Assembly (NCBI GenBank): GCA_035500505.1
Contig: DATJXE010000006.1
Location: forward strand, 30,037 to 94,036
DNA: 64,000 bases
Direction of reading: 5' to 3'
Source: Minisyncoccota bacterium
GTDB taxonomy: Bacteria > Patescibacteriota > Minisyncoccia > Phycocordibacterales > UBA2100
Shown here: piece after piece, positions 12,607 to 58,772 of the stretch
How the letters are laid out: every line of letters begins with the position of its first letter
How positions within the stretch are numbered: the first letter of the stretch is position 1
The notes under the pieces: model-generated
Database searches by the model: none
Told to the model about the DNA's origin: nothing
Seen by the model: the letters and a program-made list of their open reading frames with translations, nothing else
Position numbers and translations under genes: made by a program

Positions 12607-14046
12607 TCAATACGCGGTCGTTGCGACCGTGCTCACCGAAAATGTCGCCGACGCGCTCGAAAGCTGCGTCAAGGTGATGCTGTAGTTGCCGGAGGTGTAG
12701 CTCTGACCCACCGAGAGCGTCTGCGGCGGGGTCGGGAACACCGCTATCATGCAGCGGACCTGCGGCGGCGGGTCCGAAGGGAACGAGTTCCAGCAGCCGA
12801 CCGGCGTCGGCTGGATGGTCGCCGAAGACGAAGAAATGCTTTGCAGGGTGAAGTAGAAACTCAAGTTGCGCACCTCCGCGATGCCGCCCTGCGTGAGCGT
12901 CACGCTGCCGGGCGCGTTGAGCTGCTGGATGTTCGAAGTGGTAGTGCCGCCGCCGGCAGTTACGGTGACGGTCGCGGTGCCGAGAATGGGAATGTTCGGA
13001 CAATTGCAAATGCCGCCCGCGGGGCACGCACACGGCGCTCCGGTGAGCGTTGCCGTGTAGGTACCGGCGGAGACATACACGTGTGTTACGGTGCCAAGCT
13101 CGTTGCAGCTCGAACACACGGGAGCGACGAGAAGGTTGGCGCTCGTGCCGTCGCCAAAGCTTACCGTTGATCCGATGTTGGAGCCTTGAGGCGCCGTCGA
13201 GGTGAATTGCACCGAGAGCGGCGCACTACCCGATGTCGGCGATGCGGAGAAGCTCACGCTCGACACGGAAGACGATCCGACCGTGATGACGGCCGAAGCG
13301 ACCGGCAGCGGACCGACGAAGCACTCGGCTCCGGGCGGACACGTGTTCTTCATCAGGCGCGCGGTGTATGTGCCGTTCGTGGTGTATGTGTGCGAAACGG
13401 TGTAGGAGCAGCGGATGCCTCCCTGTCCGCCCACAATGGCGGTGATGCCGACGCAGCTACCCTTGGCCATGTCGCCCGTTTGCCCGTCGCCGAAATCAAC
13501 GGAATAGGTCGTTGAGCTCGCGGTGATGGAATCGCCCGTGGTGAACGTGACCGAAAGCGGCGCGGGACCCGACTGCGGGTCGGCGGAGAACGATTGCCCC
13601 TGGGTAGCGCCGCCGCACCATCGTATGAGGAAGGAGCGCGACAGAGGCCCGAAGATGCCGAAGCCCGCGTTGCCGGACGCGGCGACGCCGTTTTGCGCTT
13701 GCCACTTCCCTACCGCAGCAGCCGTAAGCGGCCCGTAATATCCGGTCGCCGAAACGTTCAGGTATCCCTGAGAGGAGAGAAATTGCTGAAGCGAGGTGAC
13801 GTCGCTCCCCGTCGCGCCTACCGAAAGCGAACGCGCGAAGGAGGGACAGATGCGGGGCGCGCCCACAGTTACCGAAGAGCCGACGCTGCCGGAGACCGAT
13901 GTCGATGCGCCGCCCTGCAGCGCTTGTATCTGGGAGAGGAGTGCCGATATCTGCGCCTGCAGATCGCTTATGGTTAGAGCCGAAGAAACGAGCGGCATCG
14001 CGAAGAGCGCCATGCCAACCCCCGCAAACAATGCTTTTCTGAACAT
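12607..14046 (-). CDS. Secreted protein with a peptidoglycan-binding (PG_binding_1-like) domain and PKD/Ig-like repeats
   Basis: Signal peptide MFRKALFAGVGMALFAMPLVSSA, the motif GATGSDVTSLQQFLSSQGYL...YYGPLTAAAVGKWQAQNG, and repeated PLSVxFT beta-rich modules. Confidence 0.55.
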   Translation of the reverse strand: MFRKALFAGVGMALFAMPLVSSALTISDLQAQISALLSQIQALQGGASTSVSGSVGSSVTVGAPRICPSFARSLSVGATGSDVTSLQQFLSSQGYLNVSATGYYGPLTAAAVGKWQAQNGVAASGNAGFGIFGPLSRSFLIRWCGGATQGQSFSADPQSGPAPLSVTFTTGDSITASSTTYSVDFGDGQTGDMAKGSCVGITAIVGGQGGIRCSYTVSHTYTTNGTYTARLMKNTCPPGAECFVGPLPVASAVITVGSSSVSSVSFSASPTSGSAPLSVQFTSTAPQGSNIGSTVSFGDGTSANLLVAPVCSSCNELGTVTHVYVSAGTYTATLTGAPCACPAGGICNCPNIPILGTATVTVTAGGGTTTSNIQQLNAPGSVTLTQGGIAEVRNLSFYFTLQSISSSSATIQPTPVGCWNSFPSDPPPQVRCMIAVFPTPPQTLSVGQSYTSGNYSITLTQLSSASATFSVSTVATTAY

Positions 14047-17023: not shown

Positions 17024-17368
17024 TTAGACAAGAAAGTGGCTGTAGAGAGTAATTGCTAAGGCGCAGACTACAAAAGCTGTCGAGCCGATTGCCCAGAAAG
17101 AATTCGGCAAGTTCCGCAAAGGACTTGGCGCATAGTAACCTAACCACGTCGCATCGTAATTTATTTCAGGATGTATTTGCTTTCGTAAAGTGAATTCCCA
17201 CGTGCTCAAAATGCAGCACCTAAAGACTGCGTATGATGCCGCGGTAACAACCAAAACTGCAAAATAAATTTGCCACCAACTTGGTATGAGCCACCCAAAC
17301 AAAATAAAAAGCAGTATTGCTACGTGAAAAAATAATATTACTTCAGCGAGAATTCTTTTGCTGGTCAT
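17024..17368 (-). CDS. Small polytopic membrane protein (DUF2784-like?), low-GC gene
   Basis: The ORF is trimmed to the ATG at 17368 (MTSKRILAEV...) because the longer ORF overlaps the tRNA. Local GC is about 42% against about 60% in the surroundings. Confidence 0.45.
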   Translation of the reverse strand: MTSKRILAEVILFFHVAILLFILFGWLIPSWWQIYFAVLVVTAASYAVFRCCILSTWEFTLRKQIHPEINYDATWLGYYAPSPLRNLPNSFWAIGSTAFVVCALAITLYSHFLV

Positions 17369-17380
17369 GAATTTCGTTAA

Positions 17381-17451
17381 CTGGGGGACATGGACTCGAA
17401 CCATGATTCACAGCTCCAAAGGCTGCTGTCCTACCATTAGACGATCCCCCA
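17381..17451 (-). tRNA. tRNA-Gln (anticodon TTG)
   Basis: The reverse complement reads TGGGGGATCGTCTAATGGTAGGACAGCAGCCTTTGGAGCTGTGAATCATGGTTCGAGTCCATGTCCCCCAG. It has a 7-bp acceptor stem with a U1-A72 pair, the GGTTCGAGTCC T-arm, and a CTTTGGA anticodon loop. CCA is not encoded. Confidence 0.85.
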
Positions 17452-17529
17452 AACACGACTGATAGTAACAAAAAAACGGCTCGTTGGAACGCGCTGGCCA
17501 CTGAATCTTGTTTCGGGTAAAATCGACCG

Positions 17530-19740
17530 ATGCGGCAGATAGCAATGCTTACGGCCGCGGCTATCGGAGCCGTTTGCATCATCGCGGGGCTCTTCACGCT
17601 CAACCAGGTCGACCAGGAAGAACTCGACCTGACCGCGCGGTTGCAATCCCACTCGCAGATTGTCGCCGACAGCCTCGTCGACGAAGTCAGCCCTGCCTTC
17701 CGCTCCTACGCGACCAGCACGGTCCAAACGACCGTGGAAAAGTTCGCCAACGAGGAACGCGTCGTCGGCATCGGCGTGTACGACGCGAACGGCAATCCGG
17801 TCGCGCTCTCGGATGGACTTCCCCAGAACGTCAGCGGAGAGAACGTCATCCCGACCTCGATGGACAGCGACGCGGGCACCGGCGCTTACATCGGCAGCAG
17901 CCAGGGCGCGCTCTATGTCTTCTCCGACCCTATTACCGTTGACAACCACGTCATCGGCGCACTCGTCGTCGTGCAAAGCTCCCAATACATCAACGACGCG
18001 GTGACGGGCATCTGGAAGGACGCGCTCGTGCACCTCTTCCTCGAGATCATCCTCTTTGCGGGAGCCATCATTTTCATCGTGCGTTTCGTGTTCCGCCGAG
18101 CCATAACCGATGTCGCGGAATCGGTGCGCTCGATACGCGCGGGCGGCTCCGGCGACGAGCGGGGCGGCTCCGGCATGAGCATATTCCGGCCGCTCACGAG
18201 CGAGATAGCGAAAATGTCGACGAGTTTGCGCGATGCGCGCAGGGCCGCGAGCGAAGAAGCGCGCATGCGCCTGGAGAAACTCGACTCCCCTTGGACCGCC
18301 GAGCGCCTCAAGGAATTCATCAAAGCCTACCTCAAGGACCGGCCGATATATGTCGTCTCCAACGCCGAACCGTACGTGCACAACAAAGTAAAAAATAAGA
18401 TCGAATGGTCGGTGCCCGCCGGCGGTGTCATCACCGCGATAGAGCCGGTGATGGAGGCATGCGGCGGCACCTGGATCGCGCAAGGGAGCGGCGACGCCGA
18501 CAAGGCGGCAGCCAACAAAGAGGGCAAGCTGCGTGTGCCGCCTGAGGAGCCGAAATACACGCTCAAGCGCGTCTTCCTTTCGCCGAAAGAACGCAAAGGC
18601 TACTACGACGGCTTTTCCAACGAAGCGCTCTGGCCGTTGTGCCATCTGGCACACGTGCGCCCGCAATTCCGCAAAGAGGATTGGGCCGAATATCGCAAGG
18701 TCAACGGCATGTTCGCAAAAACGCTGCTTGAAGAGATCCGGCACGTCGAACGCCCGATAGTGCTCGTGCAGGACTACCACCTCGCGCTCGTCCCCGCGCT
18801 CGTCAAAAAAAGCCGGCCCGACGCGCAGGTCGCCATGTTCTGGCACATCCCGTGGCCCTCGGCCGCGCAATTTTCCATTTGCCCCTGGCGCAAAGAGTTG
18901 CTCGAGGGCATGCTCGGCGCCGACCTGGTCGGCTTCCACACGCAGCAGTACTGCAACAACTTCATGGATACCGTCGCCGCCGAGATCGAAGCGCGCATCG
19001 ACTTGGAGCGCTTCGCGGTCGTGCGCGGCGGGCACGAAACGCGCGTCGAACCCTTCCCCATTTCCATCGCCTTCCCGGGGAACGCCGAGATAGAAACCCC
19101 GCCCGACAGATCGATGCTCGACCAGCTCGGCATCAAAACGCCGCTTTTGGCGCTCGGCGTCGACCGGCTCGATTACATCAAAGGCATTCCGGAGCGCTTC
19201 CGCGGCGTCGAATTCTTGCTCAAAATGAACCCCGAATACCGCGAAAAATTCACACTGCTGCAGATAGCATCCCCGACGCGGCACGGCGTCGAGAAGTTCG
19301 AAGAATACGCGCAACAGGTGTTCACGGAAGCCGAGCGCATCAACGAGGCCTACGGCACCGAAACCTGGAAGCCCATCGTCATCGAGCACAAAAGCTACTC
19401 GCACTCGGATTTGCGCAAGCTCTATCAGCTCGCCGACGTGTGTCTCGTCACATCGCTCCACGACGGCATGAACCTCGTCGCCAAAGAATACGTCGCTGCG
19501 CGCTCGCAGGAGAACGGCGTCCTCATCTTGAGCCACTTCGCCGGCGCCTCGCGCGATCTCCCCACCGCGCTCAGCGTCAACCCGTACAGCGCGGAAGAAA
19601 CCGCCGAGGCGCTCAGGCTCGCCTTCACGATGCCCGAAAGCGAACAGCACCGCCGGATGAAGCAGATGCGCGCGGCGGTGCGTGATTACAACGTGTACCG
19701 CTGGTCGGCGGAGATCATCAAGGCGCTCGCGAAGCTGTGA
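17530..19740 (+). CDS. otsA: Alpha,alpha-trehalose-phosphate synthase (GT20) fused to an N-terminal two-TM sensor and HAMP-like module
   Basis: The C-terminal approximately 480 aa are a clear OtsA (YDGFSNEALWPLCH..., VQDYHLALVPALV..., FWHIPWP...). The N-terminal approximately 250 aa contain TM1 (LTAAAIGAVCIIAGLF), a roughly 140-aa extracytoplasmic domain, TM2 (LFLEIILFAGAIIFIVRFVF), and an amphipathic HAMP-like linker. Confidence 0.85.
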   Translation: MRQIAMLTAAAIGAVCIIAGLFTLNQVDQEELDLTARLQSHSQIVADSLVDEVSPAFRSYATSTVQTTVEKFANEERVVGIGVYDANGNPVALSDGLPQNVSGENVIPTSMDSDAGTGAYIGSSQGALYVFSDPITVDNHVIGALVVVQSSQYINDAVTGIWKDALVHLFLEIILFAGAIIFIVRFVFRRAITDVAESVRSIRAGGSGDERGGSGMSIFRPLTSEIAKMSTSLRDARRAASEEARMRLEKLDSPWTAERLKEFIKAYLKDRPIYVVSNAEPYVHNKVKNKIEWSVPAGGVITAIEPVMEACGGTWIAQGSGDADKAAANKEGKLRVPPEEPKYTLKRVFLSPKERKGYYDGFSNEALWPLCHLAHVRPQFRKEDWAEYRKVNGMFAKTLLEEIRHVERPIVLVQDYHLALVPALVKKSRPDAQVAMFWHIPWPSAAQFSICPWRKELLEGMLGADLVGFHTQQYCNNFMDTVAAEIEARIDLERFAVVRGGHETRVEPFPISIAFPGNAEIETPPDRSMLDQLGIKTPLLALGVDRLDYIKGIPERFRGVEFLLKMNPEYREKFTLLQIASPTRHGVEKFEEYAQQVFTEAERINEAYGTETWKPIVIEHKSYSHSDLRKLYQLADVCLVTSLHDGMNLVAKEYVAARSQENGVLILSHFAGASRDLPTALSVNPYSAEETAEALRLAFTMPESEQHRRMKQMRAAVRDYNVYRWSAEIIKALAKL

Positions 19741-19741
19741 T

Positions 19742-20518
19742 ATGGAGCACGCGCGTCGCGCTCTCGAACATATCGGGCGCCGCATGTCTCGCGGGCAGCA
19801 GCTCGTGCTCTTCCTCGATTTCGACGGCACGCTCGCGCCCATCGTACGAGACCCCTCGAAAGCGCGCATGGCGAAGCGCACGCACACGCTCGTCGAGCGA
19901 CTGGCACGGCGCGTGCCGCTTTACATTGTGACAGGACGTTCGTTGCGTGACATACGAAAACGCGCTCGCATACGCGGAGCGCGGTATGCCGGCAACCATG
20001 GCATGGAATGGAGCCGCGGTGCCGCGACCGAGAGTGTCCGCGTTTCGAGCGCCGCGCAAAAGGATGTTCGCGACGCGCTGCGGGCACTGCGCCCCCTCCG
20101 ACGGTACCGAGGCGTTTTTATTGAAGACAAGAAAATATCGGTCGCGTTCCATTACCGCGGTGTTTCGCGGCGTGAGATGCCGGAAGTCATCCAAACAGCG
20201 CACCGCGTGCTTGCTCCAATCCTCAAACGCGGCCGCATCGAGGCACTGCAGCAAAAGAAGCTGCTCGACGTGCGCCCGAAGGGCTGGCACAAGGGCGGCT
20301 TTGTCCGTTTGGTCATGCGGCACATGCCGAAGAACAGCGTCGCGGTCTATATCGGCGATGATGCGACGGACGAGGACGCGTTCGGCGCGCTCCGCGCGAG
20401 CGAGATCGGCATTCGCGTCGGTAAACGTTCTTCAAGTCGCGCGGGGTACTACCTTTCTTCGCAGCGCGCCATGGACGGCTTTCTATTGCGGCTCGCCGCA
20501 CAGATCGACGACCGCTAG
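19742..20518 (+). CDS. otsB: Trehalose-6-phosphate phosphatase (HAD family)
   Basis: LFLDFDGTLAPIV is HAD motif I, and GDDATDEDAF is motif III. The ATG is 2 nt after the otsA stop. Confidence 0.85.
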   Translation: MEHARRALEHIGRRMSRGQQLVLFLDFDGTLAPIVRDPSKARMAKRTHTLVERLARRVPLYIVTGRSLRDIRKRARIRGARYAGNHGMEWSRGAATESVRVSSAAQKDVRDALRALRPLRRYRGVFIEDKKISVAFHYRGVSRREMPEVIQTAHRVLAPILKRGRIEALQQKKLLDVRPKGWHKGGFVRLVMRHMPKNSVAVYIGDDATDEDAFGALRASEIGIRVGKRSSSRAGYYLSSQRAMDGFLLRLAAQIDDR

Positions 20519-30626: not shown

Positions 30627-32156
30627 ATGACAGCCGCAACGCCCAGGCCACTGAAGGAAATTCTCGACGCAATGTCGTCCAAGGACACCTCGGACATCGA
30701 CCTCGTCTCGAAAGCATACGAATTCGCCGAGACCGCGCACAAGGACCAGAAGCGTTACTCGGGCGATCCCTATTTCATCCACCCGGCAGAGGTCGGTTTT
30801 TCTCTCGCGCAGGCGGGAATGGATGCACACGCGATCGCGGCTGGCCTTTTGCACGACACCATTGAAGACGCCGGCGTGAAGCCCGCAACGATCGAGGAGC
30901 AATTCGGCAAGGAGGTCTTGACGCTCGTCGAAGGCGTCACGAAACTCGGCGCTCTACGCTATCGCGGCCTTGAGCGACACACCGAATCGCTCCGCAAACT
31001 CTTCGCGGCGACCGCAAAGGACATCCGCGTGCTCATCATCAAACTGATGGACCGCCTGCACAATGCGCGCACGCTCGAATTCGTGCCGAAGGAAGAAAAG
31101 CGCACGCGCATCGCGCTCGAGACGCTCGAGATATACGCTCCGATAGCGGACCGCCTCGGCATGAGCCTTCTCAAGCAAGAGCTCGAGGACGCGGCGTTCC
31201 CTTTCGCGCAGCCGAAAGAGTACGAGAAAACGCGCGAGATATTCAAGGAGCGCAAGCATGAGAACGAGAAGCGGCTCGAGAAGACCGAGCACGACCTCAA
31301 GCGCGAACTCGGAGAGGCGGGGCTCTTGAATTTCCGTACCGAAGCGCGCGTCAAAGGCGCGTACAGCCTCTTCCGCAAACTCGAGCGCAAGAGTTGGGAT
31401 TTTTCGAAGGTGTACGACATGCGCGCGCTGCGCGTCATCTTCCCGACGGTCGCCGATTGCTACTCGGCGCTCGGCGTCATCCACGCGCACTGGCGTCCGG
31501 TGCCCGGCAAGATAAAGGATTACATCGCCTTCCCGAAACCCAACGGCTACCAATCCATCCATACGACCGTGTACACGGGCGACGGCGGCGCCATCGAGAT
31601 ACAGCTGCGCACCGAAGCGCAGCACCGCGAAGCGCTTTTCGGCATCGCGTCCCACCTGACCTACAAAGAATCGCTCGAGGGCGGCAAGCGGCGCAGCAGT
31701 CTCGACTGGCTCCGTCAATTCTTCCCCGGTCGCGGAAAGAACGCGGACAAGCTTGCGCCGAACGAACGGGGCGGCGTGCCGGAGTGGGTCACGGAACTCG
31801 CTCACGCGCACGGCGATCAGGAGTCCGAGGAATATCTCGACACCCTGAAGACCGATTTTTTCAGCCACCGCGTATTCGTCTTCACGCCAAAAGGCGACGT
31901 CATCGACCTGCCCATCGAAGCCACGCCGATCGATTTCGCGTATGCGGTGCACTCCGATCTCGGCAACCACATGTCCGGCGCCCGCGTCAACGGCAAAATG
32001 GTGTCGCTCGAAACCCCGCTCCGGAACGGCGACATGGTGGAAATAATCACGAAGCCTGCAGGAAAACCGTCACGCAAGTGGCACGACATCGCGAAGACGA
32101 GCATGGCGAAGAAGCACATACGCGCGGCGCTCTCGGCGGCGGATAGGAAAAGGTAG
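30627..32156 (+). CDS. rel: Bifunctional (p)ppGpp synthetase/hydrolase, RelA/SpoT family (short form, HD + synthetase + TGS)
   Basis: The HD domain has HDTIEDAG. The synthetase domain has RVKGAYSLFRKL...YIAFPKPNGYQSIHT. A TGS-like C-terminus follows. The protein is 509 aa. Confidence 0.9.
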   Translation: MTAATPRPLKEILDAMSSKDTSDIDLVSKAYEFAETAHKDQKRYSGDPYFIHPAEVGFSLAQAGMDAHAIAAGLLHDTIEDAGVKPATIEEQFGKEVLTLVEGVTKLGALRYRGLERHTESLRKLFAATAKDIRVLIIKLMDRLHNARTLEFVPKEEKRTRIALETLEIYAPIADRLGMSLLKQELEDAAFPFAQPKEYEKTREIFKERKHENEKRLEKTEHDLKRELGEAGLLNFRTEARVKGAYSLFRKLERKSWDFSKVYDMRALRVIFPTVADCYSALGVIHAHWRPVPGKIKDYIAFPKPNGYQSIHTTVYTGDGGAIEIQLRTEAQHREALFGIASHLTYKESLEGGKRRSSLDWLRQFFPGRGKNADKLAPNERGGVPEWVTELAHAHGDQESEEYLDTLKTDFFSHRVFVFTPKGDVIDLPIEATPIDFAYAVHSDLGNHMSGARVNGKMVSLETPLRNGDMVEIITKPAGKPSRKWHDIAKTSMAKKHIRAALSAADRKR

Positions 32157-47252: not shown

Positions 47253-49613
47253 TTAAGCGTCCCAGCGCCAATCGCGGATCTCCGGCATGTCGACGCCGTT
47301 CTCGTCGATGTAACGTTTGTGTTCGACGAGCTTGTCCGCCAATTCCTGTTTCAAATACGCGCCCTCGCTTCCGGTCTGCGGGAGCCTGTCGATAACGTCC
47401 ATCGCAAGGTGGTAACGGTCCATGTCGTTGAGGACGGCCATGTCGAAAGGTGTCGTGATGGTCCCCTCTTCCTTGTACCCGCGCACATGGATGTTGCGGT
47501 TGGCGCGGCGGTACGTGAGCCTGTGGATGAGCCAGGGATAGCCGTGGAACGCGAATATGATGTGCTTGTCTTTGGTGAAAAGCGAATCGTAATCCGCGTC
47601 GGAAAGACCGTGCGAGTGTTCGCTCTGAGGTTCGAGCCGCATGAGGTCGAGAACATTGATGACTCGGATCTTCAGCTTCGGAAGACGTTTCCGTAGGATA
47701 GAAACGGCCGCGAGCGTCTCCAGGGTCGGGATGTCGCCTGCACAGGCCATGACGACATCCGGCTCGCCGTCCTGATCGTTGCTCGCCCACTGCCAGATGC
47801 CGATGCCTTCGGTGCAGTGTTTGACAGCGGCGTCCATGTCGAGCCACTGTACGCTGTCATGCTTGCCGCACACGACGACGTTGATGTAGTTCTGCGAACG
47901 GAAACAGTGATCCATAACGGAAAGCAAGCAGTTCGCATCCGGCGGCAAGTACACACGCACCATCACCGATTTCTTGTTGACGACGTGGTCGATGAATCCC
48001 GGATCCTGGTGCGTGAAGCCGTTGTGGTCCTGCCGCCACACGTGCGAGGTCAGGAGGTAATTGAGTGACGAGATCTTTTCACGCCACGGCAACTCAAGCG
48101 ACATCTTCATCCACTTTGCGTGCTGGGTCAGCATCGAATCGACGATTCGGATGAACGCTTCGTAGCTGTGGAAGAGTCCGTGCCGTCCGGTCAAAAGATA
48201 TCCTTCGAGCCATCCTTCGCAGAGGTGCTCGCTCAACACTTCGACGACGCGACCTTCGGGTGCGAGGAATTCGTCGCCGGACTTGAGCTCCGCTTCCCAC
48301 TGACGATTCGTCACCTCAAAAACTGCCTCGAGGCGGTTCGATATGGTTTCGTCGGGACCGAAGACGCGGAAATTTTTCTGCGCCGCGTTCGCCTTGATGA
48401 TGTCGCGCAAAAAAGGCCCGAGCACGTGGACGTTGCCGGCGATGGCTTTGGTCGGCGCGGGCACCGCGACGGCGTAGGAACGGAAATCCGGCATGATGAG
48501 ATCTCGGCGCAATTTGCCGCCGTTCGTGTGCGGGTTCATGCCCATCCTTCTCTCGCCTTCCGGCGCGAGCTTGGCGAGTTGAGGGAGGAGCCGTCCCTCT
48601 TCGTCGAACAATTCTTCGGGCCGGTAACTTTTCAGCCAGTCCTCAAGCATCTTCAGATGTTCAGGCGGCTCGGTCGCCGAGACGAGAAGCGGCACTTGGT
48701 GCGAACGGAACGTCCCCTCGACGGGAAGGCCGTCGACGGTCTTCGGCCCAGTCCAGCCTTTCGGCGAATTGAACACCAGCATCGGCCAACGCGGGCGCGA
48801 AGGGTCGTTGTTCGTGCGCGCGTTTTCTTGTATCCGTCGTATTTCTTCGATGGCTTTGTCGAGGGTCGCCGCCATCGCCTGGTGCATCAGGCGCGGATCG
48901 TCCCCTTCGACGAAGTACGGCGTCCAGCCGTACCCGCGGAAGAGCTGTTCCAACTCTTCGCGCGTGATGCGGGCGAGAACGGTCGGGTTGGATATCTTGT
49001 AACCGTTCAGGTTGAGGATGGGCAGTACGGCGCCGTCGGAAACGGGATTCAGGAACTTGTTGGAGTGCCATGCGGTCGCCAGGGGGCCGGTTTCCGCCTC
49101 TCCGTCGCCGACGACGCAGGCTGCAATGAGGCCGGGATTGTCGAAAACGGCCCCAAATGAGTGGCTTAGGGAGTATCCCAGTTCCCCGCCCTCGTGGATG
49201 GAACCGGGGGTCTGCGGCGAGACGTGGCTCGATATCCCTCCGGGGAACGAGAACTGTCCGAAAAGCCGCTTGAGGCCTGCGATGTCTTGGCTTACGTTCG
49301 GATATATTTCGCTGTACGTGCCCTCAAGATACACGTGACCGACGACCGCCGGCCCGCCGTGCCCGGGACCGGATACGTATATCATGTCGAGGTCGTATTT
49401 TTTGATGACGCGGTTGAGGTGTGTATAGATGAAATTTTGCGCGGGCGTCGTTCCCCAGTGTCCCAATAAAAGCTGCTTCACGTGTTCGAGCTTCAAAGGC
49501 TCGCGCAAAAGCGGATTGTCGCGCAGGTAAATTTGCCCGACCGAAAGATAATTCGACGCGCGCCAATACGCGTCCATGTCCGAGAGCACTTCCGGTGTCA
49601 GCCGTTCATCCAT
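47253..49613 (-). CDS. xfp: Xylulose-5-phosphate/fructose-6-phosphate phosphoketolase
   Basis: [21 protein letters not shown]...[11 protein letters not shown]...GPGHGGPA and a C-terminal TPP/XFP domain. The start is trimmed to [10 protein letters not shown]. Confidence 0.9.
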
Positions 49614-50718
49614 GATGTTGTAGGAAGCGGCTCGCTTCCTCGGCGATGACCGATTCTTCATCGGTGTACATTGCGAGGACCGCGACCTTGCTCCCGAGGG
49701 TGGAGATCACGGGTTCGTTGGCGTCGTTCTTGTGCTCATCGAGTTCGATGCCGAGGAACCCCAACCCTTCGCAGACCCGCGCGCGGATCTTCGGGGCTTT
49801 TTCCCCGATCCCGCCCGCAAAGACGAGCGTATCCAGACCACCGAGCGACGCCGAGAACGCTCCGATGCATTTTTTGACCTGATAACAAAAAAGCGCGATG
49901 GCTTGCGCCGCGCGGGCGTCGGTCGCCTCTTGTTCGAGAAGCGCGTGCATGTCGGCGCTTATCTCGGACACGCCGAGGAGCCCGGAGCGGCCGTTGACCA
50001 TTTCGTTGAACTGCTTCGCGTCCATCCCCTCCGTGCGCGCGAAGTACCAGGGTAACCCTGGATCAAGGTCGCCGGAGCGAGTGCTCATCATGACGCCGGA
50101 AGCGGGCGTGAAGCCCATGCTGGTGTCCACCGGTTTCCCTTCGCGCACAGCCGCAAGACTTGCGCCGCTTCCCAAGTGCGCAAGCACCACACGGCCTCGC
50201 GCCGCGTCTTCTCCCTGCACGCGGGCGAGCTCTTTCATCAGATATGAATACGAAAGCCCGTGAAATCCGTACCGTCGAACCCCTTTCGCTTCGTAGCGGC
50301 GAGGGATCGACAACATACGAGCGACCTCCGGAAGGTCATGAAAAAAACCGGTGTCGAAACATGCGATATGGGGCACATCCTTGAATTGCGCCTGGAATTC
50401 TTTGATGAGCCGGAGTTCTTCAGGGAGATGGTCCGGATCGAATTGCTCGTAGGCGTGCAGTGTTCCCAGCATCTTTTCGTCGATGAGCGTCGGAGCGTAA
50501 TAGGACGGACCGCCGTTCACCACGCGATGCCCCACCGCGCGGATGGTCGCGTCCAAAGAATGCTCTCGCAACTTTCCCGCGATCTCTTGCGCGGCATTCG
50601 CCACCTCGACGCTGCCGGACAGAAGTTTCTTCGTCCGGTCCGTCGCGTCACACACGGCAAATTTCACACTCGAGGAGCCTGCATTTACGGCCAAAATGTT
50701 GGAAGGACCCGTTTCCAT
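49606..50718 (-). CDS. ackA: Acetate kinase
   Basis: [24 protein letters not shown], and RYGFHGLSY motifs. Confidence 0.9.
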
Positions 50719-55617: not shown

Positions 55618-58600
55618 TCACTTTCCGTACTTGCTGTTCACCGTATTCAGGATGCTGTTGCCGAGCGAGAGGGCTTTTCCTTGCAGGGTGATCAATGTGC
55701 CTACCGCTCCCCAATTACCCGCGTTATATGAAGCGTACGCATTCGCCATTTGATTTTGGACCCCGAGGAACTTGTTGATCTGCGTGACCAGTTGCGTATC
55801 GCCAAGCACTGCGGCTTCCGCATGCATTTTTTGTACTGCCGACGCGCCTGCGGCAATAGAAGCGGTGTCCGCACCTCCTGCGCCGGCGCTCGCGAGCGCG
55901 TTCAACCCCTTGCTTGCCACCGCGGCGTTATTCACGAGAGCGTTTTCGGCAGCCTGTTGATTCGCTTTTGCCTGAGCCGCCTGGAGTTCCGCACACGGGC
56001 CGCTGCAATCATAGGGGTTGTCATTGGAAAGTTCGGTTTCCTGGGTCGCGTTGGCTTGGGTGTTCGAGGAGTTGTTTGTGTCCGTTGGCTGTTCTGCGGA
56101 AGCAGGTGCTGTCGCTCCGTAGGCGAGGGCCTCATTTTCGGACGGAGCTGCCCAGTCGTATTGATAGCCGGGTGGCGAGAAGGCGAGTCCTTCATCTTGG
56201 GAAAGCGTTACCGAAGCTGCGGGAGCGGGCTCTTGCGGCACTGGAACTGGCGCTTCGGTATTCACGACCGAGGTTTGTTGGCTCGCAACGTAGTCGGAAA
56301 ACGGTCCTCCCTGGCCGACCGGCGTGCTCCCAGGAAGCGGCTGTGAGGGCGGCGTCGGCGTCACGAGAGCGACATCGCTGCCGGTACCATTGAGTTCTTT
56401 TTCGAGCGCGCCGGAGACGACGTAGTTGCTGCTGCCGCTTTGCGTGTAGTCGGTCACCGGAACGTTCTGGACCGTCTTATCACCGACTTGAACGCTTACG
56501 GTGTCACCTATCCGCAGGCCGTAAGGATTGTCCTTGGGGACGGCAACGGCGTCCGTGGACCCGTTCAACGGAGTACCGCCGGCCGCGGCGGTAGAGCTGT
56601 CTTGCCCGCAGAATCCTCCTCCGCCCGTGCAAGTGAGCGTAACCAGTGCCGGCGAGTTCTCGCTCGGATTCGTTCCGAACGCGTCGTTGAATTCGAGCTG
56701 CGACCAATTGGGTTGTGAGGCGGTCGGTGACGGTGGCACGTTCTGTTCGGCCACGGCAAGGGGATTTTCTCCATTATCTTGGATTTGTGGTGGAACATTT
56801 TGTTCTGCGATGGCGAGAGGATTCTCGCCATTATCAGAAATCGTCGGCGGTGTATTCTGTTCGGCGACCGCGAGCGGATTTTCCCCGTTATCTTGAATGG
56901 TCGGGGGAACGTTCTGTTCCGCAAGTGCAAGCGGATTTTCGCCGGTGTCGGGATACGTGAAGTAGTTGGCCTCGGCAGGCACGATGGGCGCTGGAGCGGG
57001 GTTTCCCCCCTGATACGCGAGCGCCTCGTTCTCCGACGGACTCGCCCAGTTGTATTGATATCCCGGCGGCGAGAAAGCGAGCGCTTCGTTTTGTGCAGCT
57101 TGATATGCGTTTGATTGCTCGTTCGAAAGCGGGAGTGGTTCGCTTGCCACCTGCTCAGTGGGTGTGGGCTGTTCAAGCGCAGGTCCGCTCTCAACCGACG
57201 TTACAGGGGTAGGCTGCGAAAGTTCCGAGCCTGTCTCAACCGCCGTTGTCGGGTACGGTTCTGTGTTCGGTTCCGCGGCAGGTGTCGGCGACGTTAGGTC
57301 GTTCCACCACTGCGAGAATTGTTCTCCGAGCGTCGGTTGCGACGTAGGAGCGGGCGCTTCGTTGATACGTTGCTGTGCAAGTTGATCTTGTATCAGTTGA
57401 AGTTCTGCCGGCGTTTTTGTCTCCAAGTCGGGTCCCGGCTGAGACCAAGTTTCAGGAGTAGAGAGCGAAGCGAAATCGGGTTGCGAAAATGACGGCGTGT
57501 TCACGACTGGCGGCGCGCTCCAAGGATCGAGTGCGTTCGGGTTGCTGTTCAACGCGAGCGCCATCTGCGAGCCCGAGCCGTAGCTCGACGTGTTGGCAAT
57601 GACGCCGACCTGCATCGTCCCCGCTCCTTGCTCGTTGCTCAGGCCGATAGCGTTCGCGGCTGCGGGCGTGAGATCGATGCCTTTTCCGCAACTCGGACAA
57701 ACATCGCCGACGACCGCATTCACTGACTGACCGGAATCGGGATTGCTTATGCTTAATACTTGTCCGAATTTGTATCCGGAATCGGGTCCCGCCGCGACGG
57801 TCGGAACATTTGGGTCGAGGTAATTTCCTTTGGAACCGTACAAGCCCCCCTCCTGCGAAACGCTGCATCCCGAGGGTCCGCCAACGCAACCGGGATAGTA
57901 GATCGTCGCCGTAACGTCAGTCGCATTTTGCGCTGCGTTCTGTTGATTATTCAGTGTGTCTTGCGCATACGAGCTCGTATTTTGCGCCTGCTCGTTGGTG
58001 AGTCCTGGCAACGACCCCATCGGTTGGGACGAAAACGTACTTTGGGAACTCGGCTGGTAGTCGACGTTCGGCGTGCTGCCGCTCGAGGGCGCGCCGGAAG
58101 GTTCGCTCGTCAACGATTGCGCTTGGCCGCTCGGGAGCGTCGGTTCGGGATTGAAAACGATGTTTTGCGCATTCTCGTTAGGGACGAGATTTCCCGAAGA
58201 TGGAACTGCGTTTTCTTGCCCCGTCAGCCACTTGAACGCGTTGTCGAGCACGGACGTTCCGGGGGTTATCGTGTCTTGGGTCTGCAAAGCCGTCTGCGTT
58301 TGGATTCCCGTCGGAGTCGAAGGTGGTTCGAGCGTAATGCCGGTGGCCGGGGTCACTTGCGGCGTGGAACCGGTGGTGACACCCGCTCCGCTTTGTCCAG
58401 CGGTCGTCAGCGGCTTCGAGCCCGAGACCCACTGCCCGTCCGCATTCACATACGACGTTTCCTGCGCCTTATTTTCCGTGACACATATCCCTTTCACTTC
58501 CGTATTGGCGACCGGAAGTCCGTACCCGCATTGTTTTCCCTGCTTGTCGGTTTGTCCGAACTCGCACGCGTAGTCGTATTGGGACGTACAAAGCGCGTCG

Positions 58601-58701
58601 AGCGCAGTCGAGGACTGAGCGGTCTGGGTTTGCGCGCCCGCAGGCGCCGCAGCAAGTAGGACCCCAACGACAAAAAGCACCGCAATCGAAGGCGATTTCA
58701 C
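55618..58701 (-). CDS. Large secreted repeat protein with RlpA-like double-psi beta-barrel (DPBB) domain
   Basis: The signal peptide from GTG start 58701 is MKSPSIAVLFVVGVLLAAAPAGA. The DPBB signature is ...GGLYGSKGNYLDPNVPTVAAGPDSGYKFGQVLSISNPDSGQSVNAVVGDVCPSCGKGIDLTPAAANAIG. There are four tandem 20-aa repeats DNGENPLAxAEQNVPPxIQ and two copies of LAFSPPGYQYxWAxPSENEALAY. Confidence 0.7.
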   Translation of the reverse strand: MKSPSIAVLFVVGVLLAAAPAGAQTQTAQSSTALDALCTSQYDYACEFGQTDKQGKQCGYGLPVANTEVKGICVTENKAQETSYVNADGQWVSGSKPLTTAGQSGAGVTTGSTPQVTPATGITLEPPSTPTGIQTQTALQTQDTITPGTSVLDNAFKWLTGQENAVPSSGNLVPNENAQNIVFNPEPTLPSGQAQSLTSEPSGAPSSGSTPNVDYQPSSQSTFSSQPMGSLPGLTNEQAQNTSSYAQDTLNNQQNAAQNATDVTATIYYPGCVGGPSGCSVSQEGGLYGSKGNYLDPNVPTVAAGPDSGYKFGQVLSISNPDSGQSVNAVVGDVCPSCGKGIDLTPAAANAIGLSNEQGAGTMQVGVIANTSSYGSGSQMALALNSNPNALDPWSAPPVVNTPSFSQPDFASLSTPETWSQPGPDLETKTPAELQLIQDQLAQQRINEAPAPTSQPTLGEQFSQWWNDLTSPTPAAEPNTEPYPTTAVETGSELSQPTPVTSVESGPALEQPTPTEQVASEPLPLSNEQSNAYQAAQNEALAFSPPGYQYNWASPSENEALAYQGGNPAPAPIVPAEANYFTYPDTGENPLALAEQNVPPTIQDNGENPLAVAEQNTPPTISDNGENPLAIAEQNVPPQIQDNGENPLAVAEQNVPPSPTASQPNWSQLEFNDAFGTNPSENSPALVTLTCTGGGGFCGQDSSTAAAGGTPLNGSTDAVAVPKDNPYGLRIGDTVSVQVGDKTVQNVPVTDYTQSGSSNYVVSGALEKELNGTGSDVALVTPTPPSQPLPGSTPVGQGGPFSDYVASQQTSVVNTEAPVPVPQEPAPAASVTLSQDEGLAFSPPGYQYDWAAPSENEALAYGATAPASAEQPTDTNNSSNTQANATQETELSNDNPYDCSGPCAELQAAQAKANQQAAENALVNNAAVASKGLNALASAGAGGADTASIAAGASAVQKMHAEAAVLGDTQLVTQINKFLGVQNQMANAYASYNAGNWGAVGTLITLQGKALSLGNSILNTVNSKYGK
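56740..56975. repeat. Tandem approximately 60-bp repeats (4 imperfect copies) inside the large surface-protein gene
   Basis: Read directly: the unit ...GTTCTGTTCGGCxACxGCxAGxGGATTTTCxCCxTTATC... recurs four times in a row. Confidence 0.7.
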
Positions 58702-58772
58702 CTCTTCATAGTAGCAAGGCGCGGCCACGTAAGACGTGGTCGCGCCTCCCTTCTGTGGAATCGCCGAAATGA

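Follow-up and report, generated by a model that had tools for sequence, protein, structure and literature searches.

The 64,000-nucleotide stretch of Minisyncoccota DNA analysed here (the window) encodes a fusion protein that we interpret as a receptor-type trehalose-6-phosphate synthase that spans the membrane and would be placed under allosteric control by an extracytoplasmic signal, a reading to which we assign a probability of roughly 0.6. This interpretation builds on what the analysis shows, namely, the domain architecture, membrane topology, conservation pattern, otsB linkage and wide distribution of the protein. The gene (17530..19740, plus strand) specifies 736 amino acids (aa) plus a stop codon in one uninterrupted open reading frame (ORF). 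Homologues keep the MRQ N-terminus, which supports the start at 17530; a database entry, P0040, represents the identical protein but is called from Met6. Given that the match to the GT20 family (PF00982) covers aa 274–734, some 270 residues are left ahead of the enzyme, in agreement with the original prediction of a single protein carrying a long extension, then put at about 250 aa, before the GT20 domain. A frameshift, assembly or two-ORF artefact is ruled out, with the frame being continuous and the single-ORF layout recurring in more than 190 independent homologues.

Kyte-Doolittle hydropathy, averaged over 19 residues, rises above 1.6 at only two places in the whole protein, aa 4–22 (peak of 2.44) and aa 166–184 (2.68), which correspond to transmembrane (TM) helices TM1 (17539..17601, plus strand; aa 4–24) and TM2 (18019..18093, plus strand; aa 164–188). 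The 139-aa loop between the two helices is acidic and the basic motif RFVFRR directly follows TM2 on the cytoplasmic side, a pattern that fits a topology with the N-terminus inside, the loop outside and the C-terminus inside. Thus, the two TM helices flanking an extracytoplasmic domain of about 140 aa that had been proposed initially are borne out, and the strings quoted for TM2 and for the amphipathic segment that follows it are found at aa 161–188 and aa 189–240, respectively. In the AF2 model, TM1 and the first part of the sensor domain form a single long helix (residues 2–58, pLDDT 82–92), whereas TM2 is part of a continuous helix spanning residues 152–203. A role of TM1 as a cleavable signal peptide is not favoured, since the model helix is unbroken to residue 58, as in Cache sensors, and the sequence offers no obvious AxA-type site for cleavage.

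The extracytoplasmic domain (17602..18018, plus strand; aa 25–163) has a single Cache, or PAS-like, sensor fold of the WalK type. In the AF2 prediction (pLDDT 77–92 over aa 1–170), the domain opens with a long helix that prolongs TM1, after which comes an alpha/beta PAS-like core; the two TM helices flank the whole. Searches of the window protein against Pfam and NCBIfam returned no above-threshold Cache or HAMP match, only sub-threshold ones to SMP_2, AtoS, CreC and YfiN; with the window sequence alone, SMP_2 was the sole Pfam match, itself below threshold, to the sensor region. Direct detection of the HAMP and Cache domains having thus failed, profiles and structure were needed instead. Comparison of the family profile with the PDB yielded the extracellular domain of WalK (5is1, E 4.8e-5; 4ywz, 2.2e-4; 7dud, 2.6e-4), and Foldseek matched the same domain, 7dud and 4ywz, at E about 3e-8 (best 2.7e-8; TMt 0.76), followed by the sensor domains of KinD, Tlp3, DctB and CitA; TMt values to the WalK and CitA sensor domains were 0.70–0.76. 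The best structural match of all was a full-length WalK model, aligned over 255 columns that encompass TM1-Cache-TM2-HAMP (E 1.5e-12). Relatives weakly match the Pfam families Cache_WalK, sCache_3_2, dCache_1, CHASE8 and SMP_2, and some of them reach E values between about 6e-5 and 8e-5 for the first three of these. Sequence profile (E 5e-5) and fold (Foldseek TM 0.76) hence converge on WalK and support the earlier expectation of a Cache/PAS-like sensor in the N-terminal region.

The amphipathic segment after TM2 (18094..18246, plus strand; aa 189–239) is probably a divergent HAMP domain, composed of AS1 (aa 189–205), a connector (206–221) and AS2 (222–239). Its HAMP-like character, noticed in the initial inspection, is recovered by profile comparison, although the Pfam HAMP model is silent: hhalign aligned the family segment with eight HAMP sequences, each above the Pfam threshold, with 93.3% probability (E 2.8e-7, 59 columns), whereas Pfam HAMP (PF00672) has no match in the window protein at E ≤ 1 and matches 2 of 12 relatives, with a best E of 0.024. 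AF2 predicts a helix-loop-helix (helix 152–203, loop 204–216, helix 217–251); hydrophobic positions 192/195/199 and 222/226/229/233 are conserved with a spacing of 3–4 residues, E225 is invariant, and G205, at the end of AS1, nearly so. Canonical HAMP domains and many relatives carry a proline at the start of AS1; the residue is Ala191 in the window protein, and Pro in the five aligned Acidobacteriota as well as in some patescibacterial relatives. We count this alanine and the sub-threshold Pfam score against our preferred reading. In the full-length AF2 monomer, pLDDT drops to about 46 across aa 200–255, which also counts against this reading, and the model does not give the geometry of the HAMP-linker-enzyme coupling.

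Between the putative HAMP domain and the enzyme lies a family-specific linker (18247..18345, plus strand; aa 240–272) that consists of ASEEARMRLEKLD, a DSPW hinge and a helix, TAERLKEFIKAYLKDRP, running into strand beta-1 of the GT20 domain. Its mean pairwise identity, 86.1%, is the highest in the protein, with GT20 reaching 71.4% and the sensor 49.1%. In a set of 49 sequences, P254, W255, T256, R259, L260, E262 and F263 are invariant, and the LWTAERL motif is retained in Acidobacteriota, too. A linker that is more conserved than the catalytic domain is to be expected of a coupling element rather than of a passive tether.

Neither Pfam nor NCBIfam detects a HisKA, a HATPase or a further output domain in the fusion protein, and the weak AtoS, CreC and YfiN matches are confined to the N-terminal sensor region. 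Given that there is no phosphotransfer domain, the one-component receptor-enzyme, in line with the one-component membrane sensor of the original prediction, is the correct architectural class. WalK (YycG), a sensor histidine kinase of Firmicutes, shares TM1, the single Cache/PAS-like domain, TM2 and HAMP and is the best match in both sequence profile and structure, but the identity is about 15–18%. Furthermore, WalK continues into a PAS-DHp-CA kinase, with phosphotransfer to WalR, whereas the fusion protein continues into its unique linker and GT20, with neither kinase nor receiver. HAMP-coupled receptor enzymes, such as the mycobacterial class III adenylate cyclase Rv3645 and HAMP-GGDEF proteins, offer another parallel, in that membrane receptor, HAMP and catalytic output are united in one chain, with no phosphorelay. 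However, the outputs of these proteins are second messengers, made in active sites that lie across a HAMP-controlled dimer interface, whereas the fusion protein would deliver a compatible-solute precursor, made by a GT-B enzyme of primary metabolism whose active site lies within the monomer.

Thus arranged, with the WalK-like input module joined via the near-invariant helix-hinge-helix linker to strand beta-1 of GT20, the fusion protein would dimerise via a HAMP four-helix bundle. On sensing a ligand or a disturbance of the envelope, the Cache domain would displace TM2, the HAMP domain would change its conformation, and the linker would then either move the enzyme's N-terminal GT-B lobe, with beta-1 and the glycine loop that close over the substrates, or alter the packing of the two catalytic domains. 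As a result, synthesis of trehalose-6-phosphate would go up or down without a transcriptional step, and OtsB, encoded by the adjoining gene, would convert the product to trehalose. The parts of this scheme that we infer are the dimerisation, the gating by allostery, the signalling direction and the kind of signal, be it osmotic or envelope-derived. In cyclases and kinases, the active site is built by dimer geometry under HAMP control; unlike in these enzymes, the GT-B active site is inside one monomer, which makes the mechanism of HAMP coupling less obvious.

The fusion is real and is kept in hundreds of species in which it is labelled only ‘trehalose-6-phosphate synthase’ in databases; being conserved so broadly, it is not rare. 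The same layout is found in more than 119 full-length homologues from Kaiserbacteria/Paceibacterota (about 735 aa, 60–77% identity), and a search of GTDB genomes with an Acidobacteriota-type alignment of the module identified relatives in at least 155 species genomes, mostly Acidobacteriota among the 80 that are listed. These 80 loci are all from MAGs, and 78 of them align full length. With the N-terminal profile, 1611 representative proteins are matched at E ≤ 1e-3; of the long matches scanned, the majority carry GT20. Such a distribution suggests that the fusion is either ancient or has spread successfully. In other Patescibacteria, a homologous TM-Cache-TM-HAMP module (34% identity to that of the window protein, E 6e-31) is fused to a GCS2 carboxylate-amine ligase, as seen in 5 protein clusters (P0173 and P0308–P0311) from at least 10 independent contigs. 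These proteins resemble the fusion protein in that the module is N-terminal to a cytoplasmic biosynthetic enzyme and in being uncharacterised, but their output is an enzyme of glutamate-cysteine-ligase family 2 and the EEARMRLEKLDSPWTAERL linker is absent. The presence of the module on the unrelated GCS2 ligase implies that it is portable and is placed ahead of cytoplasmic biosynthetic enzymes. The chances seem to us about even that the fusion protein is the founding example of a class of transmembrane ‘receptor-metabolic enzymes’ not described before, in which a portable WalK-like Cache-HAMP module gates GT20 in the case described here and GCS2 in sister lineages.

That the whole module, with its HAMP domain, was transferred to a second enzyme with no relation to OtsA argues against the alternative in which it is a passive membrane anchor that merely tethers or dimerises OtsA and passes no signal, for example, so that trehalose is made where lipids need protection or is supplied to an exporter or a glycolipid pathway. 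Indeed, one TM helix would suffice for such a purpose, yet the full Cache and HAMP domains are kept in at least 2 distant phyla, and conservation of the HAMP-enzyme linker exceeds that of the enzyme itself. We therefore regard an anchor as unlikely, even if the two TM helices it calls for are certain, for many WalK-type Cache domains no small-molecule ligand is known, and no ligand-binding motif is conserved across the two clades, with the MDSD motif of Kaiserbacteria being absent from Acidobacteriota.

The catalytic domain (18346..19737, plus strand; aa 273–736) is an OtsA-type GT20 glycosyltransferase, with PF00982 matching at E 4.6e-118 (395 bits, cut-off 32.5; profile positions 4–472 of 473) and PDB matches to Tps1/OtsA at E 6e-79. 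The equivalog-level scores are below their cut-offs, at 432.6 against 564.85 for TIGR02400 (the OtsA equivalog), 476 against 634 for PRK14501 and 269 against 759 for PRK10117, so that they establish membership in the GT20 family without equivalog-level proof of function and count against our reading. Functional positions were mapped from the E. coli enzyme, in which we take Gly22, His154, Arg262, Lys267, Asp361 and Glu369 to be the donor-binding and catalytic residues and in which Arg9, Tyr76 and Arg300 presumably bind the phosphate of the acceptor, glucose-6-phosphate (G6P). In the 49 sequences, G299, D415, R546, K551, R584, D645 and E653 are invariant, H417 and Y359 are each retained in 47, and the motifs RLDYxKG and DGMNLVAKEY are aligned with those of the PDB relatives. 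In our reading, the GT20 domain is, most likely, a catalytically intact trehalose-6-phosphate synthase. Also on the debit side is the SNR-motif arginine (Arg9 in E. coli), which Gibson and colleagues reportedly described in 2002 as a ligand of the acceptor phosphate: it aligns with Ala279 in the window protein, and the same position is R in 71 relatives, G in 45 and A in 18. Soluble OtsA enzymes (E. coli, Mycobacterium, Candida Tps1; 1gz5, 5jij, 5hut) have the same GT20 fold and catalytic residues, match the fusion protein with about 270 bits across the whole catalytic domain and, like it, are encoded in an otsA-otsB pair. By contrast, they are devoid of TM segments, sensor, HAMP and the WTAERL linker, and have the SNR Arg where the window enzyme has Ala279.

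The downstream partner of the fusion gene, in a two-gene operon, is otsB (19742..20518, plus strand), the product of which matches Trehalose_PPase (PF02358) at E 5.6e-39 and, with 133 bits, passes the TIGR00685 cut-off of 68 for trehalose-6-phosphate phosphatase. The original prediction was right in placing otsB downstream, but the spacing of 2 nt given there has to be corrected to 1 nt, because the TGA of the fusion gene occupies 19738–19740 and the ATG of otsB begins at 19742. Upstream of the fusion gene, a sigma-70-like promoter match, TGGCCA-17-TAAAAT (17495..17523, plus strand), ends 7 nt before the ATG and would imply a very short leader or none; it is weak evidence and not significant alone, with 1 such site found against 1.0 expected from shuffled sequences. 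Promoter and terminator scans were at background level, and an Rfam scan upstream of it yielded tRNAs only, with no riboswitch or leader RNA.

The GT20 family also includes glucosylglycerol-phosphate synthase and related enzymes, and the sensor could, in principle, control the synthesis of another sugar-phosphate or glycoconjugate. The low OtsA equivalog scores, the 302 bits that TIGR02398 (GgpS) gives to the fusion protein and the loss of the acceptor-phosphate Arg at a position that is variable in the family would be in line with a different product, as would the DUF5752 and TreT-like genes that are found downstream in place of otsB at some Acidobacteriota loci; TreT, however, is itself a trehalose enzyme. 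Moreover, trehalose-phosphate synthases account for all of the best full-length matches among families and PDB entries, the acceptor- and donor-site residues are, as detailed above, conserved (nearly so for Y359), the adjoining gene exceeds the trehalose-phosphatase equivalog cut-off, and an otsB-like gene lies within 400 nt downstream in 46 of 75 distant, mostly Acidobacteriota, loci, so that a product other than trehalose-6-phosphate is improbable. It is far-fetched, finally, that the signal travels outward as in LapD, the GT20 domain reporting the sugar-nucleotide, G6P or trehalose-6-phosphate state through HAMP, which can transmit either way, to an extracytoplasmic domain that changes conformation and acts on an external partner: the resemblance of the sensor to the periplasmic output domain of LapD/CdgS9 (4u64; sequence E 0.12, Foldseek E 1.2e-4) and the weak Pfam LapD_MoxY_N matches in 3 of 13 relatives are surpassed by those to the input domains of WalK, CitA, DctB and Tlp3, no candidate gene for an external partner is conserved beside the fusion gene in the neighbourhoods examined, and the fully conserved GT20 catalytic residues together with the linked otsB speak for a functional enzyme, not for a pseudo-enzyme that acts as a sensor.

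We thus favour a receptor-type trehalose-6-phosphate synthase that responds to an extracytoplasmic signal. The initial remark that no characterised OtsA carries such a fusion agrees with our literature search, which did not turn up any account of an OtsA fused to TM, Cache or HAMP segments, an absence that is not proof, with most subscription journals beyond the reach of the search. Soluble OtsA enzymes are known to be controlled transcriptionally (by RpoS in E. coli) or by soluble effectors and regulatory subunits, and, to our knowledge, control of bacterial trehalose synthesis in general is transcriptional or exerted by soluble effectors. A parallel to the proposed mode of action is offered by ProP, BetP and OpuA, membrane proteins that set the accumulation of compatible solutes post-translationally, with no involvement of transcription. 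These are transporters in which cytoplasmic domains sense ionic strength or membrane state, but they are not homologous to the fusion protein and take up solutes instead of synthesising them.

How perception of stress leads to immediate synthesis of compatible solutes is still poorly defined. If our reading is correct, sensor and enzyme reside in one polypeptide, and the coupling of stimulus to response would be measurable in vitro by a simple sugar-phosphate assay. We know of no HAMP domain previously shown to drive a GT-B glycosyltransferase; this would be the first, testing the generality of HAMP signalling and extending the range of HAMP outputs past signalling domains. The parallel GCS2 fusion suggests a re-usable module that could be of interest for the engineering of ligand-gated metabolic enzymes. 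Acidobacteriota, which abound in soil, withstand desiccation and freeze-thaw, whereas Patescibacteria of the Kaiserbacteria group have very few regulators; given that the family is common in both, its physiological reach could be large. Patescibacteria, with their reduced genomes, and soil Acidobacteriota alike would gain a transcription-independent switch leading from an envelope or environmental cue to a protective solute.

The fusion gene (17530..19740, plus strand) is a single uninterrupted ORF for 736 aa, in which the Pfam GT20 match covers aa 274-734 (E 4.6e-118) and is preceded by ~270 residues. All of the sequence strings quoted in the original prediction are found in the product, and so are the two transmembrane segments placed ahead of the enzyme: the whole protein has exactly two Kyte-Doolittle hydrophobic peaks, at aa 4-22 (2.44) and aa 166-184 (2.68), separated by an acidic 139-residue stretch, with a basic RFVFRR cluster after the second. 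This pattern indicates an N-in/loop-out/C-in topology, which would place GT20 in the cytoplasm, on the same side as its substrates. Given that the frame is continuous over all 736 aa and that many relatives carry the same fusion, the N-terminal region is not a separate upstream ORF. The trehalose-phosphatase gene otsB directly follows, as proposed, starting at 19742, with a gap past the fusion gene's TGA of 1 nt rather than 2; its product matches PF02358 (E 5.6e-39) and TIGR00685 (133 bits against a cut-off of 68). A promoter-like match at 17495-17523 is of a kind that occurs at background frequency.

Scanned as a single sequence against Pfam and NCBIfam, the N-terminal region had matches below threshold only, to SMP_2/YtjB and to the sensor portions of AtoS, CreC and YfiN. 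A profile of 30 relatives, however, matches crystal structures of the extracellular Cache domain of WalK (5is1, E 4.8e-5; 4ywz, 2.2e-4; 7dud, 2.6e-4). The AlphaFold2 model of aa 1-267 (pLDDT 80) consists of a long helix that includes TM1 (aa 2-58), a PAS-like alpha/beta core (aa 62-150), a continuous helix running through TM2 into the next segment (aa 152-203), a loop (aa 204-216) and a further helix (aa 217-251). Its top Foldseek match in the PDB is the integrative model of full-length WalK, 9a5d_A (E 1.5e-12, TMq 0.67, 255 columns), aligned over TM1-Cache-TM2-HAMP; the next ranks are WalK extracellular domains (TMt 0.72-0.76), followed by the sensor domains of KinD, Tlp3, DctB and CitA. Thus, the predicted Cache/PAS-like sensor fold is borne out. 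A distant relative of 913 aa (P0170) carries two tandem copies of the Cache-like domain before TM2-HAMP-GT20.

The HAMP-like segment predicted after TM2 also holds up, although the Pfam HAMP model PF00672 does not match the window protein, and its best E among relatives is 0.024, with 2 of 12 matching. In an hhalign comparison, aa 186-252 of the family aligned with eight classical HAMP sequences, each above the Pfam threshold, at 93.3% probability (E 2.8e-7, 59 columns). Conserved hydrophobic positions (192/195/199; 218/219; 222/226/229/233) follow the 3-4 spacing expected of HAMP and include the hydrophobic connector motif, E225 is invariant and G205 nearly so, and the canonical AS1 proline, replaced by Ala in the window protein, is present in all 5 aligned Acidobacteriota sequences and some patescibacterial relatives. 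These features fit a divergent HAMP. The fusion protein lacks any signalling output such as a kinase or receiver domain.

The N-terminal module could, in principle, passively anchor the enzyme to the membrane, which we consider improbable, given that other Patescibacteria carry a homolog of the TM-Cache-TM-HAMP module (34% identity, E 6e-31) in fusion with a carboxylate-amine ligase of the GCS2 family (glutamate-cysteine ligase family 2), which is unrelated to GT20. These fusions form five clusters (P0173, P0308-P0311), spread over at least 10 contigs with lengths up to 0.2-1 Mb, including loci L081 (3373-5445), L082 (5001-7049) and L083 (2119-4167); stand-alone homologs of the ligase (~457 aa) are common in Patescibacteria/CPR bacteria and DPANN archaea. 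That the complete module, with its HAMP, has been reused on another biosynthetic enzyme speaks for regulation and against a purely anchoring role.

The linker between HAMP and the enzyme (aa 240-272; ASEEARMRLEKLD-SPW-TAERLKEFIKAYLKDRP, with seven invariant residues) has a mean pairwise identity of 86% within the Kaiserbacteria-type set, compared with 49% for the sensor, 45% for HAMP and 71% for GT20 itself, and its LWTAERL core is kept in Acidobacteriota. Conservation beyond that of the catalytic domain is expected of a coupling element. In the full-length AlphaFold2 model, the linker is helical to aa 250, bends at a DSPW hinge, forms a second helix (aa 257-268) and enters directly GT20 strand beta-1, which bears the SN(R/A) acceptor motif ahead of the PAGG glycine loop, so that it could plausibly act as a lever on the way substrates bind or the lobes close.

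Over its entire length, the GT20 domain can be aligned with Tps1/OtsA enzymes of known structure (E 6e-79). Among 49 relatives, G299, D415, R546, K551, R584, D645 and E653 do not vary, and H417 hardly does; we assign these residues to the donor-binding and most of the acceptor-binding positions of E. coli OtsA, the numbering of which was reportedly given by Gibson et al. in 2002. Ala279 (codon 18364-18366) occupies the position of the VSNR arginine near the N-terminus of OtsA enzymes, which in E. coli is Arg9, a ligand of the acceptor phosphate; relatives have R (71), G (45) or A (18) here, in contrast to the other substrate-binding residues, which are invariant or nearly so. The alanine may mean that the acceptor is bound differently or that another residue compensates. 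OtsA equivalog models score the fusion protein below their cut-offs. A different product, which would be compatible with the sensor idea, appears still less probable than anchoring; the otsB partner argues for trehalose-6-phosphate. Of the 75 loci with a long enough downstream stretch (mostly of the Acidobacteriota clade), 46 have an otsB-like gene within the next 400 nt. Some Acidobacteriota, as at L002 (6288-8386), instead of otsB have genes for a DUF5752 protein and a TreT-type (GT4) trehalose synthase after the fused synthase gene, suggesting that DUF5752 may belong to trehalose metabolism.

Other genes of the window include a tRNA-Gln (anticodon TTG; 17380-17452, minus strand), 78 nt ahead of the fusion gene and in the opposite orientation. 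A mechanically listed ORF for a DUF2784 membrane protein (17024..17404) has its first codons within this tRNA gene, and its true start must therefore lie further downstream. The window also encodes a full-length phosphoketolase with XFP_N, XFP and XFP_C domains (47253-49661, minus strand), a RelA/SpoT-type (p)ppGpp enzyme (30627-32156, plus strand) and, for this small-genome organism, a probably secreted protein with PKD and peptidoglycan-binding domains (12607-14046, minus strand). Two minus-strand ORFs, of 1035 aa (55618-58728) and 658 aa (39636-41615), match no Pfam family at E <= 1e-5; the latter, which overlaps two long plus-strand ORFs (39550..40737 and 40752..41687), is possibly not a real gene.

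A full-length search returned at least 119 full-length clusters (~735 aa, 60-77% identity), the named members of which belong to Candidatus Kaiserbacteria, Paceibacterota or Patescibacteria and are labeled 'trehalose-6-phosphate synthase' or 'hypothetical'. Against 1.84 billion representative proteins, the profile of the N-terminal module gave 1611 matches at E <= 1e-3 and 606 at E <= 1e-10. Among 20 longer matches scanned for output domains, out of the 150 listed, 14 contain GT20, 1 contains GCS2 and 5 have no output-domain match; P0184, P0196, P0227 and P0255 still show the first residues of GT20 (VVSNREPY) ahead of the point where the frame degenerates, whereas P0234, frameshifted earlier, retains only the short GT20-like motif PPDHPQYTLRRVWL. 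A scan of GTDB species identified a divergent clade, encoded in at least 155 genomes; those listed are mostly Acidobacteriota (Terriglobia, Acidobacteriaceae, Bryobacteraceae, Sulfotelmatobacter), joined by one MAG each of Limnocylindrales, Saccharimonadales and Baltobacteraceae. At 78 of the 80 loci listed, the alignment to the window protein runs from N-terminus to C-terminus. This distribution indicates that the sensor-OtsA fusion is real and under selection, and that it either is old or has been transferred widely. Full-text searches, in literature with few of the subscription journals, turned up no OtsA described as fused to TM, Cache or HAMP segments, in agreement with the original prediction, which knew of no characterized OtsA of this kind. 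With so many relatives in public databases, the gene belongs to an existing, apparently uncharacterized family.

The input half of the fusion protein resembles WalK, for which a cell-wall-derived signal has been proposed, and the protein shares the logic of HAMP-coupled enzyme control with HAMP-coupled cyclases and diguanylate cyclases. Unlike in these, the output is a primary-metabolism GT-B enzyme with an active site that is not built across the dimer interface. The external domain weakly resembles LapD periplasmic domains, but LapD-like inside-out signaling seems very unlikely. The one-component architecture put forward originally stands, with TM segments, Cache, HAMP and GT20 in one chain, and gating stays a proposal: we assign a probability of roughly 60% to a receptor-enzyme in which an external cue modulates trehalose-6-phosphate synthesis. 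The Cache domain would sense the cue, possibly osmotic, desiccation or envelope stress, a WalK-like cell-wall-derived signal or a specific small molecule; the signal would pass through TM2 and a dimeric HAMP, and the invariant linker would relay it to the synthase, with OtsB completing the trehalose pathway.
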